Assembly (NCBI GenBank): GCA_011042225.1
Contig: DQXT01000052.1
Span: 1-52,151, forward strand
DNA from: Deltaproteobacteria bacterium
GTDB lineage: Bacteria > Desulfobacterota > Dissulfuribacteria > Dissulfuribacterales > UBA3076
Length of the DNA stretch: 52,151 nt
Direction of reading: 5' to 3'
Shown here: piece by piece, positions 10,982-14,602 of the stretch
Numbering within the stretch: the stretch's first letter is position 1
Layout of the letters: every line of letters begins with the position of its first letter
Position numbers and translations under genes: made by a program
Notes under the pieces: model-generated
Told to the model about the DNA's origin: nothing
Seen by the model: only the letters and a program-made list of their open reading frames with translations
The model's database searches: none

Positions 10982-11185
10982 ATGGACGGTAGAGTAAAAT
11001 GGTTCAATGATAAGAAAGGTTATGGTTTTATCGAGACGGATAACGAAGGTGATGTCTTTGTACATTATAGTGCTATCCAGGGAGAAGGATTTCGTTCATT
11101 GCAAGAGGGAGAGAGAGTAACTTTTGATATAGAGCAGAGCCCCAGGGGCCCTCAAGCAACCGATGTTAGAAGGGTTTCAGGGTAA
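10982..11185 (+). CDS. cold-shock protein (CspA family)
   Basis: 67 aa. [15 protein letters not shown] (RNP1) and DVFVHYSAI (RNP2), with a GGAGAA RBS. It is preceded by about 240 nt of non-coding leader, as is typical for csp genes. Confidence 0.9.
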
Positions 11186-11338: not shown

Positions 11339-12367
11339 TTACTTCTCTAATACAAAAAATAGTCCCTTTGGAGAGTTGACGAGCGTACCTTCAAACGTGC
11401 TTTTCGTGACATAACGCACAGTAAATGTCGGTTTGAAGAGTTCTGCTATCTTTTTTTCGGTAAATCGATAAGGACCTCTGTCACCGGGCTCCTCATAACT
11501 GAATACTTTTATAAAAAGCCTGCCGCCAGGACGGATGACTTCTGCAACATGATGGATATAATGTCCACGTTCTTCAGGCGGAATACCGTGAAAACATCCA
11601 CGGTCAAAGGCATAATCAAAATTTCCGAAATAAGTCAAAGGCTGACATACGTCAGCTATTTCGTATATGAGATGCGGATTCAAATCGCCAAAGCGAAGGC
11701 GGGCTTGCTCAATTGCAGCAGTTGCTATATCAACGGCTACAACTTCATATCCCAGGGCTGCCAGCCGGGCCGCGGCTGTCCCCGGCCCGGATCCCAGCTC
11801 AAGCAAACGCCCGGGTAAGGGGGCATATTCCGATAGGGCTGTAACGAGATCTTCGTCAAGGCAATCAGTATACCAAGGCATATCTTCTAAAGAAACCGCT
11901 TTATAAAAATACTCCCAAGTTTGACCGCTGGGACCTCGAGCCCTTTTCCCCGATAACTCGATCCTTGACATGGTGAGATCTGAGAGACTGCCCCTTGCTA
12001 CCAGCTCAATGCTATGATTATCTGGGTCTTTGAGTGTAAGCATCTGTTCTGTTCCCAGCCGTTCTGACGGGCCGTTGACTTGTAATCCCAACGCTCTGAG
12101 CTTGTCACGAGCTTGCAGAAGCTCCCATATTGGTAACCAAAAGCTCACTGTTATCCTGTCTTTTTTTAAGGGGCGCTCTATGAGTCGCAGCGCAGCATGT
12201 CCAGTTGATACCTCCCATGTCCCATCCGGCAAAGCTCTTGCCATCATGCCGAGTTTATCTCTGTAAAATATCAAGGAGTTCGAACGGTCACTTACCGGTA
12301 AAATCACACAGCGCATGTCTCGCAACACGATTGGAATATCAAGACCTCGAGCAGTCATATCTTTCAT
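11339..12367 (-). CDS. fusion protein: N-terminal VOC/glyoxalase-like domain plus C-terminal SAM-dependent methyltransferase (TPMT/TehB-like)
   Basis: 342 aa. The N-terminal roughly 125 aa have the beta-alpha-beta-beta-beta VOC pattern (...LTLKDPDNHSIELV). The C-terminal half has W..(F)Y......PW then the SAM motif I LELGSGPGTAAARLAALGYEVVAVD and FDRGCFH. Confidence 0.7.
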   Translation of the reverse strand: MKDMTARGLDIPIVLRDMRCVILPVSDRSNSLIFYRDKLGMMARALPDGTWEVSTGHAALRLIERPLKKDRITVSFWLPIWELLQARDKLRALGLQVNGPSERLGTEQMLTLKDPDNHSIELVARGSLSDLTMSRIELSGKRARGPSGQTWEYFYKAVSLEDMPWYTDCLDEDLVTALSEYAPLPGRLLELGSGPGTAAARLAALGYEVVAVDIATAAIEQARLRFGDLNPHLIYEIADVCQPLTYFGNFDYAFDRGCFHGIPPEERGHYIHHVAEVIRPGGRLFIKVFSYEEPGDRGPYRFTEKKIAELFKPTFTVRYVTKSTFEGTLVNSPKGLFFVLEK

Positions 12368-12523: not shown

Positions 12524-12552
12524 TTGACAGTTTCAGGAACCATTTCTATTAT
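12524..12552 (+). promoter_or_regulatory. sigma-70 type promoter for tRNA-Gly
   Basis: TTGACA (12524-12529), a 17-nt spacer, then TATTAT (12547-12552). The -10 element ends 16 nt before the mature tRNA 5' end. Confidence 0.6.
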
Positions 12553-12568
12553 TCAGATTCGGTTTATT

Positions 12569-12643
12569 GCGGGAATAACTCAGTGGTAGAGTGTAACCTT
12601 GCCAAGGTTAAAGTCGCGGGTTCAAATCCCGTTTCCCGCTCCA
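12569..12643 (+). tRNA. tRNA-Gly (anticodon GCC), CCA encoded
   Basis: Folded by hand. Acceptor GCGGGAA/TTCCCGC, D arm ACTC-AGTGGTA-GAGT, anticodon arm TAACC-TTGCCAA-GGTTA, T arm GCGGG-TTCAAAT-CCCGT, discriminator T and CCA. Confidence 0.9.
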
Positions 12644-12658
12644 ATCATTAAAATAGCA

Positions 12659-12685
12659 GGGCAGCCATGGCTGCCCTTTTTATTT
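12659..12685 (+). terminator. intrinsic terminator after tRNA-Gly
   Basis: Perfect palindrome GGGCAGCCATGGCTGCCC (12659-12676) followed by TTTTTATTT. Confidence 0.7.
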
Positions 12686-12694
12686 CCGGCATTT

Positions 12695-14137
12695 ATGAAA
12701 AATTTTCCTCCGTGTCTAATAACCTGGTCTACTTTTCTAGTAATTTTTATACTGAACCTGGAAGTTTTTGCAGGGGCCAAACTGCAAAATCCCCAGGTAA
12801 AGCAGGTTACAACCACCGTAAGCGGCCAAGTGGATCTATGCCTTTCCTGCCACAAGGAAAAACCAGACCAAACTCACGGTAGAGAGGTCCTGGGGTGTGC
12901 TGTGTGTCATATGGGAAACCCGCTTTCCGGCGACAAACAACGGGCACATATGGGTATGGTTCTGAATCCCGGAGAACTTCGATTTGCAGATAAAACCTGC
13001 GGTCAGCTCGGCTGCCACCCGAATGAGGTCACTTGGGTCAAGAACTCACTTATGGCTACAAATCGCGGTATCATAAGCACCCTTCGTTTTTACTGGGAAG
13101 AGAGCCATGATCACAATGAAGACCTTTCAGTAAAAATGCTTAAAGATACGGGCATGAGTTCTCTTGCCCTTGACTACTACAGAAAATTGTGCGCGAGCTG
13201 CCATCTATGGGTTGAACGTGGGAGTCTTCCCGATTTTCTGGCACGCAAGGGCGGGGGTTGCACTGCCTGTCACTTTGTGAAAGACGAAGAAACAAAACTA
13301 AAAGACGAGAAACATCCAAGAATAATAAAGATTATTCCCATGGAAAATTGCGTATTATGTCACAACCGAAGTGGACGTATCGGGCTGTCCTATCAGGGAC
13401 TATTTGAGTCTGAGGGCTATGGCACCCCGTATGAAGAAGGCGACTTTTCTTCCCAAGAGTTAATTGATGGCCGTTTTTACCGAATATTTAAGGACGATAT
13501 TCATCACGAAAAAGGAATGACTTGTATTGACTGCCATACTCAAAAAGAAATCATGGGAGATGGAGAACGCCATGCCCATTTTGAAAACCAGCTGGAGGTT
13601 ACATGCAGGGATTGCCATGATATTTCTAAAACATTAGATATAGTTATTGCAGCCAAAAAAGCTGATAAAGGCACTTCTGTCACCTCTAAGTCCTCCTCGA
13701 ACCGCCTGGAAATACCAAAACAACAAATAGATCAATCACCAAATCCACCCAGTCCTCCCGAACTCAACATCCATCAGAAAAACGACTCATTTTTCCTTGA
13801 GAATAAACAAAATAAAAAAGTTCATCCGCTACACGCACCTGATCCGATCTCATGCATGCATCCAACTCATCGCCGTCTGTCTTGCCAGGCCTGTCATAGC
13901 AAGTGGGTGCCTCAGTGCTACGGCTGTCATATCCAGATGGATATGAGCAAGACCCAATTAGATAAGGTCTCAATAAATGAGACCCCAGGGCTCTGGAAAG
14001 AGTTTCGTTCATTCATACGCTACGAATGTCCACCTCTGGGAATACTTGAGCATGGAAAAAAAGAAGGGAAAAATCCTTCTGAAAAGACCGAGCTTCAAGC
14101 CAAGACTTCTGAGGTGGTTATTCTTGTTCCCGGGTGA
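12695..14137 (+). CDS. multiheme c-type cytochrome, N-terminal part (nine CxxCH plus one CxxxxCH), ending at an in-frame TGA
   Basis: The signal-anchor MKNFPPCLITWSTFLVIFILNLEVFAGA starts at ATG 12695; the ORF-track start at 12599 lies inside the tRNA. Heme motifs: CLSCH, CAVCH, CGQLGCH (12998-13018), CASCH, CTACH, CVLCH, CIDCH, CRDCH, CQACH, CYGCH. Confidence 0.85.
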   Translation: MKNFPPCLITWSTFLVIFILNLEVFAGAKLQNPQVKQVTTTVSGQVDLCLSCHKEKPDQTHGREVLGCAVCHMGNPLSGDKQRAHMGMVLNPGELRFADKTCGQLGCHPNEVTWVKNSLMATNRGIISTLRFYWEESHDHNEDLSVKMLKDTGMSSLALDYYRKLCASCHLWVERGSLPDFLARKGGGCTACHFVKDEETKLKDEKHPRIIKIIPMENCVLCHNRSGRIGLSYQGLFESEGYGTPYEEGDFSSQELIDGRFYRIFKDDIHHEKGMTCIDCHTQKEIMGDGERHAHFENQLEVTCRDCHDISKTLDIVIAAKKADKGTSVTSKSSSNRLEIPKQQIDQSPNPPSPPELNIHQKNDSFFLENKQNKKVHPLHAPDPISCMHPTHRRLSCQACHSKWVPQCYGCHIQMDMSKTQLDKVSINETPGLWKEFRSFIRYECPPLGILEHGKKEGKNPSEKTELQAKTSEVVILVPG

Positions 14138-14164
14138 CAGGATTTCATTACCGTCCTGGACGGG

Positions 14165-14602
14165 GTGGGCAAATGGAAACGTGATTTTAAGCGGCTCACA
14201 GTCTCATGGATGGACCCTCATACCACGCAGAAAGGTGGACGCTCCTGCAAGGAATGCCACCAAGATCCCAGGGCATTAGGGCTCGGTCAGGGCAACCTCT
14301 CCCTTGGATCTGTTGGGTGGAACTTCACATCCTCTCTTTCAGGTCTTTCTACCTCCCTGGGCATAGACCACCCACTGGACTCCTTCGTTGACATACAAGG
14401 CAGACCCTTAGTCCTTACATCAAGAACGGGACTAAGACCCTTTAATTCAAAAGAACTTAATAAAATCCTATATGTGGGGCTTTGTCTTCCATGCCACACA
14501 GATTTTGACGACCCTGTAATGAGAAGCTGGACTCCCGGAAAAGCACCTTCCCCTTGCCCCTGTGCCGACTTTTTTAACAGTCAGCATGCTCCGGAGAATT
14601 AG
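14165..14602 (+). CDS. multiheme cytochrome, C-terminal continuation (two more CxxCH), in frame with the previous ORF
   Basis: Same reading frame as 12695-14137, and the frame is open from 14138. Contains CKECH and CLPCH. There is no RBS or signal peptide of its own, so it is unlikely to be an independent gene. Confidence 0.7.
   Translation: MGKWKRDFKRLTVSWMDPHTTQKGGRSCKECHQDPRALGLGQGNLSLGSVGWNFTSSLSGLSTSLGIDHPLDSFVDIQGRPLVLTSRTGLRPFNSKELNKILYVGLCLPCHTDFDDPVMRSWTPGKAPSPCPCADFFNSQHAPEN

Follow-up and report, generated by a model that had tools for sequence, protein, structure and literature searches.

Does the UGA codon that interrupts a multiheme cytochrome gene end translation, or is it read as an amino acid? 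The question is raised by positions 12695-14602 of a 52,151-nucleotide stretch of DNA (contig DQXT01000052.1 of assembly GCA_011042225.1, forward strand; hereafter the window) from a Deltaproteobacteria bacterium of the order Dissulfuribacterales. Our answer is that 12695-14602 is very probably one gene for a periplasmic, ExtM-like, twelve-heme cytochrome c, in which the UGA at 14135-14137 would be decoded as selenocysteine (Sec; U481); we give this reading a probability of about 0.88. The first-pass annotation of the window had raised the idea that the UGA may encode Sec, and the idea is now supported by a Cys/Sec column in the family alignment, by conservation of both the UGA and the reading frame behind it, and by a hairpin specific to genes that carry TGA.

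One reading frame with a single internal UGA

On the forward strand, the frame runs from ATG 12695 to TAG 14600-14602, comprising 636 codons and 635 residues. Its sole internal stop is TGA 14135-14137, at residue 481, in the context ...EVVILVPG-*-QDFITVLDGVGKWKRD.... The gene divides as follows:

12695..14134, + strand: N-terminal part, 480 codons, with a signal-peptide-like N-terminus and heme motifs 1-10 (translation, Pfam, NCBIfam, and homologues down to 45% identity)
14135..14137, + strand: in-frame UGA, read as Sec (U481), motif VPG-U-QD, aligned with an invariant Cys
14138..14602, + strand: C-terminal part, 154 codons plus TAG, with heme motifs 11-12 and the invariant C621; every TGA locus keeps an open frame here and a conserved protein

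The joined protein contains 12 heme motifs, ten before the TGA (nine CxxCH and one Cx4CH, CGQLGCH at 12998-13018, C102...C107-H108) and two after it, CKECH (motif 11) and CLPCH (motif 12). Its N-terminus, MKNFPPCLITWSTFLVIFILNLEVFAGA|K, looks like a signal peptide of the Sec (secretory) type, a call made by reading the sequence by eye. In the mechanical list of open reading frames (ORFs), the second part opens at GTG 14165. The first-pass annotation had described a single frame in which one in-frame UGA splits a cytochrome of about 635 residues, with nine CxxCH and one CxxxxCH upstream, CKECH and CLPCH downstream, and a second half that has heme motifs but no signal peptide; translation bears out this description throughout.

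Conservation of the UGA and its pairing with cysteine

The residue aligned with the UGA is cysteine wherever the protein is complete in the databases. In alignment A1, all of the close homologues (7/7) stop at ...VPG, and 13 full-length homologues read VPG-C-QD; alignment A4, which comprises 47 full-length homologues, shows no variation at P479, G480, C481, Q482 and D483. The first-pass proposal to inspect this column for Cys or TGA gives a clear answer, with Cys (PGCQD) in full-length homologues and TGA in both close and distant orthologues. Among 12 species-representative metagenome-assembled genomes (MAGs) at 77-92% identity, TGA stands at the same codon in 12/12 and is followed by 152-167 in-frame conserved codons in which both heme motifs are kept. 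One of these MAGs is named 'E20SeepSRB2', and the others come from hydrothermal and seep sites.

Addition of 80 metagenome loci to the species-representative MAGs gave a comparative set of 93 sources, across which a motif scan found TGA at codon 481 in 39 (30 distinct sequences) and TGC or TGT in 52. Complete TGA loci continue for 142-185 in-frame codons past the TGA. One locus, L024, was excluded because an N and a duplicated ...VVVLVPG-TGA-CA segment follow right after its TGA (L024:1285-1345); the duplication is probably an assembly artefact. In a neighbour-joining distance tree, all TGA forms fall in one deep clade, with internal protein identity down to ~50%, and this Sec clade is sister to a large Cys-only clade. 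A Cys lineage, L038, is nested within the Sec clade and looks like a case of Sec-to-Cys reversion with loss of the selenocysteine insertion sequence (SECIS).

As an observation in its own right, the nested Cys-type lineage, to which L038 and L065 belong (VDIVPGCQDFVSF), is without the hairpin described below.

A SECIS-like hairpin directly after the UGA

In the published model of the bacterial SECIS (bSECIS), the apical loop has 3-9 nt, with G in its two opening positions and then G or U, and lies at a spacing of 16-37 nt (PMC13188914); the same model sets an upper stem of 4-16 bp and a minimum free energy (MFE) of ≤ -7.5 kcal/mol (PMC13188914). Downstream of the UGA in the window, ViennaRNA folds the following element:

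14143..14178, + strand: SECIS-like hairpin; lower stem 14143-14149/14172-14178, upper stem 14151-14157/14162-14168, loop GGAC at 14158-14161, 20 nt past the UGA

This hairpin fits the bSECIS model, with a 7-bp upper stem, a GGAC loop, a 20-nt spacing and an MFE of -10.2 kcal/mol over the 48 nt that start at the UGA. The hairpin proposed at first pass had an outer helix starting from 14143-14149, which ViennaRNA recovers as seven contiguous pairs with 14172-14178, and an inner helix CCGUC/GACGG, which turned out to be in the wrong register. The preferred register of the upper stem has -10.1 kcal/mol and pair probabilities of 0.53-0.72; the competing inner helix CCGUC/GACGG, with its CUG loop, reaches -6.9 kcal/mol and pair probabilities of ~0.23. 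Relatives conserve the register with the (U)GGA(Y) loop and not the one with the CUG loop.

The comparison of TGA sequences was based on an ungapped alignment of 48 nt starting at the UGA. Invariant in every TGA sequence are U20, C22, U23, G24, G25 and A26, and the RNAalifold consensus is a 5-bp stem, 18-22/28-32, enclosing the loop UGGAY. Within this stem, the pair 21:29 is compensatory, being C-G in 18 and U-A in 11 of the TGA sequences. We also coded the loop and spacing rules of the bSECIS model, together with a contiguous stem of ≥ 5 bp, as a scan. A qualifying hairpin was found in 28/30 TGA sequences, each time 19-20 nt from the UGA and with a stem of 5-9 bp; in the two exceptions, L018 and L026, pairing by hand gives a possible stem of 5 bp that closes a loop of 9 nt, again around CUGGAU. 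When a free energy of ≤ -3 kcal/mol was added to these rules, hairpins were retained in 23/30 TGA sequences, compared with 1/50 Cys-type sequences and 8% of shuffles. For 4 of the 30 distinct TGA sequences, the MFE of the 48 nt is weaker than -7.5 kcal/mol.

Coding changes within the hairpin bear on the same point. The window has G in place of U at 14153 relative to most relatives (Phe to Val), and U at 14166 (Gly to Val), which gives a G.U pair with 14153. The pair 14153:14166 is U.G in L001, G-C in three other independent assemblies and G.G in a fourth, and the G-C form stabilises the fold to -15.0 kcal/mol. The residue encoded by the codon at 14166 is Val, Ala or Gly across the window and these assemblies. 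The succession of G.U, U.G and G-C therefore indicates that RNA pairing is maintained despite amino-acid changes, and selection on the RNA appears to override that on the protein at this codon. The Leu codon that lies in the loop (+7) is CTG in 30/30 TGA sequences, compared with 24% CTG among the Leu codons of the window. Synonymous diversity dips at codons +7 to +9, which we regard as supporting and not decisive evidence.

Weighing the Sec reading

A number of observations count against decoding of the UGA as Sec. When windows along the gene are ranked by synonymous diversity, the dip at codons +7 to +9 comes only about 13th from the bottom. The 66-nt stretch that follows the UGA in the window folds no better than shuffles (z = -0.56), and it is only in the comparative data that the hairpin exceeds chance. 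Covariation in the hairpin amounts essentially to a single compensatory pair and a second pair whose bases differ between nearly identical strains, and it may derive from few evolutionary events. In Rfam scans of the whole window at gathering thresholds and of 14080-14260 at E ≤ 10, no SECIS family was matched; the only matches were the tRNA and one chance long non-coding RNA. Genes of the Sec machinery are also missing from the DNA examined: neither the window nor ~500 kb of sequence from related loci contains selA, selB, selC or selD, and ARAGORN, applied to the window and to all 92 loci, found no tRNA-Sec. The window's other 36 long, non-overlapping ORFs were scanned with Pfam and showed housekeeping functions only and nothing related to selenium.

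Among the competing explanations, the one that survives best, improbable as it is, holds that the UGA is recoded but not as Sec, either by near-cognate read-through (Trp, Cys or Arg) helped by the hairpin or as a lineage-wide sense codon. The missing Sec machinery in the window and the related loci examined speaks for it, as does the C that follows the UGA, since UGA followed by C is a leaky stop context. However, all homologues without the TGA have Cys at the aligned position, the hallmark of Sec, and the hairpin agrees with the bSECIS model in its geometry and its G-G loop. Of the 35 long ORFs of the window, 10 end in TGA as an ordinary stop, and an ORF scan for other TGA-joined genes in the window gave no credible case, only adjacent-gene artefacts; UGA has therefore undergone no genome-wide reassignment. 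(The same scan in GC-rich related loci produced uninterpretable noise.) Finally, the order includes a cultured member with tRNA-Sec, Dissulfurirhabdus thermomarina (PMC7463578); Seep-SRB2 has been placed in the same order, Dissulfuribacterales (PMC10553843).

Marginally less probable again is a conserved genuine stop, with the locus divided into an exported 10-heme cytochrome of 480 residues and a di-heme protein of ~145 residues that starts at GTG 14165. Gene callers and public annotation treat the locus in this way, all close database homologues are entries of 410-480 residues ending at VPG, and GTG 14165 does open an ORF. Yet the break falls exactly on the codon of an invariant Cys, and the GTG (Val) is not conserved, relatives having GGC, GGG, GGA or AGG (Gly/Arg) there. 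Between the TGA and the GTG lie nine codons whose protein sequence is conserved and which vary synonymously. In the set of 30 TGA sequences, codon +1 is CAG in 19, CAA in 9 and GAA in 2, codon +2 is GAT in 22 and GAC in 8, and codon +3 is TTC in 15, TTT in 14 and CTG in 1; codons +1 to +3 thus vary almost only synonymously, upstream of any possible restart codon, which means that codons past the UGA are translated. The lack of conservation of the GTG and the synonymous variation ahead of it therefore exclude a conserved two-gene split. CxxCH motifs of cytochromes c need periplasmic maturation, and the second part carries such motifs without a signal peptide. A SECIS-type hairpin specific to TGA forms also fits poorly with a plain stop.

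A pseudogene or an error at the TGA (a recent nonsense substitution or a miscalled base), for which only the homopolymer-indel breaks reported at first pass in other window genes might be cited, can practically be dismissed, as the TGA is common to 30 distinct sequences from many samples, including 12 species-level MAGs, the downstream frame is under purifying selection, and contigs from four independent public short-read runs, of marine, hydrothermal-vent and oil-field metagenomes, have the same bases at 14135-14137, which also answers the first-pass doubt about sequencing error. The Cys column, the conserved TGA and frame, the TGA-only hairpin and the independent assemblies together therefore refute alternatives of this kind.

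An ExtM-like family and its annotation

Pfam detects multiheme cytochrome domains in the joined protein, and the best NCBIfam model is ExtM (NF040943), which scores 283 bits against an equivalog cut-off of 800, with residues 42-610 aligned to model positions 15-585 of 599. Four Cys-type relatives (P0103, P0013, P0028 and P0017) score 253-309 bits against the same model. Judged by these scores, the Sec and Cys types together form an ExtM-like sister family and not ExtM proper, because all examined relatives of both types reach only about 250-310 bits against the cut-off of 800. The family is large, a protein database search returning 1320 clusters at E ≤ 0.001. Its close relatives (55-84% identity) are entries of 410-480 residues that span about three quarters of the query, and relatives at 45-56% identity are full length. 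Sequence and profile searches of the PDB gave merely weak, local, NrfA-like similarity in heme motifs. Homologues of the ExtM-like family have been discussed for cable bacteria (PMC11976967).

In the public records seen, the gene is always split or shortened, as in 'hypothetical protein JRI40_06130' (472 residues). Inventories of heme proteins and cytochromes for Seep-SRB2-type organisms would accordingly count a 10-heme protein, and possibly a small fragment, where one 12-heme selenoprotein appears to lie. Public names in the family are inconsistent or spurious: among P0103, P0028, P0044, P0010 and P0082 we met 'amino acid ABC transporter substrate-binding protein', 'RNase P subunit RPR2' and 'AN1-type Zn finger protein', and one family member is named 'ExtM' in databases despite scoring 300 bits against the cut-off of 800.

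The cytochrome also carries two low-complexity insertions, ...SKTLDIVIAAKKADKGTSVTSKSSSNRLEIPKQQIDQSPNPPSPPE... (~13625-13800) and ...HGKKEGKNPSEKTELQAKTSE... (14048-14113). Both are long in the window and in close Sec-type relatives and are absent or much shorter in full-length Cys-type homologues; the second directly precedes the VVILVPG-U strand.

Proposed decoding of the UGA and possible role of U481

Following the standard bacterial mechanism, a ribosome that arrives at the UGA would meet the downstream hairpin, which would recruit SelB with Sec-tRNA(Sec). With Sec in place, the ribosome would go on to translate the two remaining heme motifs. If translation instead stopped at the UGA, for instance when selenium is scarce, the result would be a shortened product with ten hemes.

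What U481 might do can be approached through a Cys-type homologue, P0013. Its AlphaFold model shows strands 444-450 and 455-459 joined by a 4-residue turn that holds the Cys; the turn forms the tip of a beta-hairpin within a beta-rich C-terminal domain. The predicted local distance difference test (pLDDT) score of the model averages 67, with 75-94 over most of the C-terminal half and ~82-85 locally. In the 47-sequence alignment A4, the family conserves only ~7 non-motif His for 12 hemes, so that not all of the hemes can be bis-His ligated, and there are two further invariant non-motif Cys, C387 (13853-13855) and C621 (14555-14557). This pattern of His and Cys suggests the presence of hemes whose axial ligation is unusual or whose coordination sites are open.

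Sec/Cys pairs typically involve redox-active catalytic residues, and Sec almost always marks such a residue. We infer by analogy that the protein is an oxidoreductase and not a mere electron carrier, because U481 replaces a Cys that is invariant in the family, few non-motif His are conserved, and C387 and C621 are present. Our best guess is that U481 acts beside or on a heme that is not bis-His ligated, in chalcogen chemistry of sulfur or selenium. Two points tell against placing much weight on this assignment: the structural model is that of a homologue, contains no hemes and has a mean pLDDT of 67, so that the role of U481 rests on analogy, and a Foldseek search of the P0013 model against the PDB returned no match at E ≤ 0.001 and hence no functional lead.

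A broader proposal, which we put forward tentatively and consider rather unlikely as a whole, is that the ExtM-like dodecaheme cytochromes are enzymes in which the PG-C/U-QD residue would serve as a catalytic chalcogen nucleophile or as an axial ligand at a non-bis-His heme. The Sec form, present in Seep-SRB2-type bacteria and relatives of theirs, would then be a second, independently evolved multiheme selenoenzyme, acting on periplasmic polysulfide, zero-valent sulfur or selenium species. If this were true, the Seep-SRB2-type partners of methane-oxidising archaea would gain a sulfur-intermediate chemistry that lies outside models of direct electron transfer. Irrespective of the substrate, Sec at an invariant Cys argues for an active site in a large and widespread ExtM-like family (> 1300 clusters), and the Sec/Cys site would offer a testable handle on the function of ExtM-type proteins.

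Genomic context

The cytochrome gene is surrounded in the window by genes for Ddl, LysM/SLT, CspA, glyoxalase-TPMT, tRNA-Gly, a GDT1 transporter, Band7, NfeD and UDG. The elements immediately upstream of it are:

11339-12367, - strand: fusion of a glyoxalase fold with a TPMT-type methyltransferase; divergent upstream neighbour, kept in the Seep-SRB2-like clade at 77-90% identity
12524..12552, + strand: sigma-70-like promoter TTGACA-17-TATTAT, with 11/12 consensus matches (pattern match only); precedes the tRNA
12569..12643, + strand: tRNA-Gly(GCC), found by ARAGORN and Rfam, ~50 nt upstream of the cytochrome ATG
12658..12685, + strand: terminator-like hairpin with T-run, located past the tRNA and ahead of the ATG; 8 pairs, of which 6 are G-C, followed by TTTTTATTT (pattern match only)

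In a consensus scan, 12524-12552 is the sole strong candidate promoter ahead of the cytochrome gene, which may depend on read-through from the tRNA-Gly transcript. The tRNA and the cytochrome gene are too close together for a separate promoter to fit in the gap, which also shows no obvious Shine-Dalgarno sequence. Twenty-nine Sec-type loci, the ones of ~50% identity among them, have a tRNA-Gly(GCC) directly upstream in the same orientation, and 0 Cys-type loci do; in the Sec-type loci (L001-L039) it is about 1.4-1.66 kb upstream of the TGA. The association of this tRNA with the Sec-type gene could be plain synteny of one lineage or functional linkage.

In 16 Cys-type loci (L041-L092), a cold-shock-domain gene ~55% identical to the CspA-like gene of the window (10982-11185) is located ~2 kb upstream. 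This shared neighbour hints that the Sec and Cys genes are orthologous and occupy an anciently syntenic locus.

Bacterial TPMT enzymes methylate selenium and tellurium compounds, which makes it curious to find a TPMT-type gene beside that of a selenoprotein akin to a 'selenite/tellurite reduction' cytochrome. A role of the glyoxalase-TPMT gene as a partner in selenium or tellurium methylation was not adopted, as its synteny holds only in the close clade and it lies on the opposite strand.

Comparison with known systems

The hairpin resembles the SECIS of the E. coli fdhF type in being located within the coding region directly after the UGA. Its apical loop has G-G at +24/+25, compared with G23-U24 in fdhF; apart from the loop G, the primary sequence of the window hairpin is unrelated to that of fdhF, and no bulged U was identified in it. 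With the bSECIS consensus the agreement is closer, the hairpins of this family having a spacing of 19-20 nt, a loop of 4-5 nt and an upper stem of 5-9 bp.

ExtM (GSU2935) of the Geobacter extHIJKLMNOPQS cluster, which is associated with selenite/tellurite reduction, is likewise periplasmic, with 12 heme motifs and ~600 residues; it is described as a 68-kDa protein with 12 hemes (PMC5877670). The PGCQD motif is shared by Cys-type relatives. The two differ in that the window protein, at 283 bits, falls under the 800-bit cut-off, its gene stands outside any ext-type cluster (porin, ExtKL, ExtN, Rieske protein, cytochrome b), and it would have Sec where the family has Cys.

Two further c-type heme protein families of anaerobes with a Sec codon appear in a review of May 2026 that tabulates more than 110 prokaryotic selenoprotein families, namely the octaheme cytochrome of the tetrathionate reductase family (TIGR04315) and the GSU2204-family CXXCH protein (NF041027) (PMC13188914). 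They were found through UGA/Cys pairing or GenBank annotation, and their heme count and architecture differ from those of the window protein, which matched neither TIGR04315 nor NF041027 in an NCBIfam scan at E ≤ 0.01. 'ExtM' and 'NF040943' have zero occurrences in that review (PMC13188914). The ExtM-like Sec cytochrome thus looks like a further bacterial selenoprotein family missing from the 2026 catalogue, bearing the ordinary signature of Cys/Sec pairing and SECIS.

The nearest conceptual parallel is MccSep/ExtKL (GSU2937-2936), a multiheme cytochrome c selenoprotein with polysulfide reductase activity that was characterised in 2026 (PMC13510729; PDB 9wt8, 9wt9). The first-pass annotation had suggested that a Sec-containing multiheme cytochrome of this type could be new; such cytochromes are by now known from MccSep/ExtKL (PMC13510729) and the two further families above (PMC13188914). 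Both MccSep and the window protein are periplasmic multiheme cytochromes c from Desulfobacterota, both have Cys-type homologues and a single in-frame UGA followed closely by a hairpin, and public annotation splits both genes into two ORFs; in Geobacter, moreover, extM adjoins mccsep. In each case the Sec, putative in the window protein, belongs to a short loop with Gly (D-G-U-P in MccSep and P-G-U-Q-D here) within a C-terminal part rich in beta structure. They are unlike in size and heme number, with five hemes and ~450 residues in MccSep compared with 12 heme motifs and 635 residues here. The MccSep chains 9wt8/9wt9, which are present in the PDB library, gave no match at E ≤ 10 by phmmer or profile search, and the ExtKL model (NF040886) gave none in the NCBIfam scan at E ≤ 0.01. 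MccSep is the only multiheme cytochrome selenoenzyme characterised so far, and a second family unrelated to it would establish selenium-heme chemistry as a recurrent phenomenon. In MccSep, Sec works beside a His/Cys-ligated heme, and this arrangement provides the conceptual parallel for the role that U481 may play.

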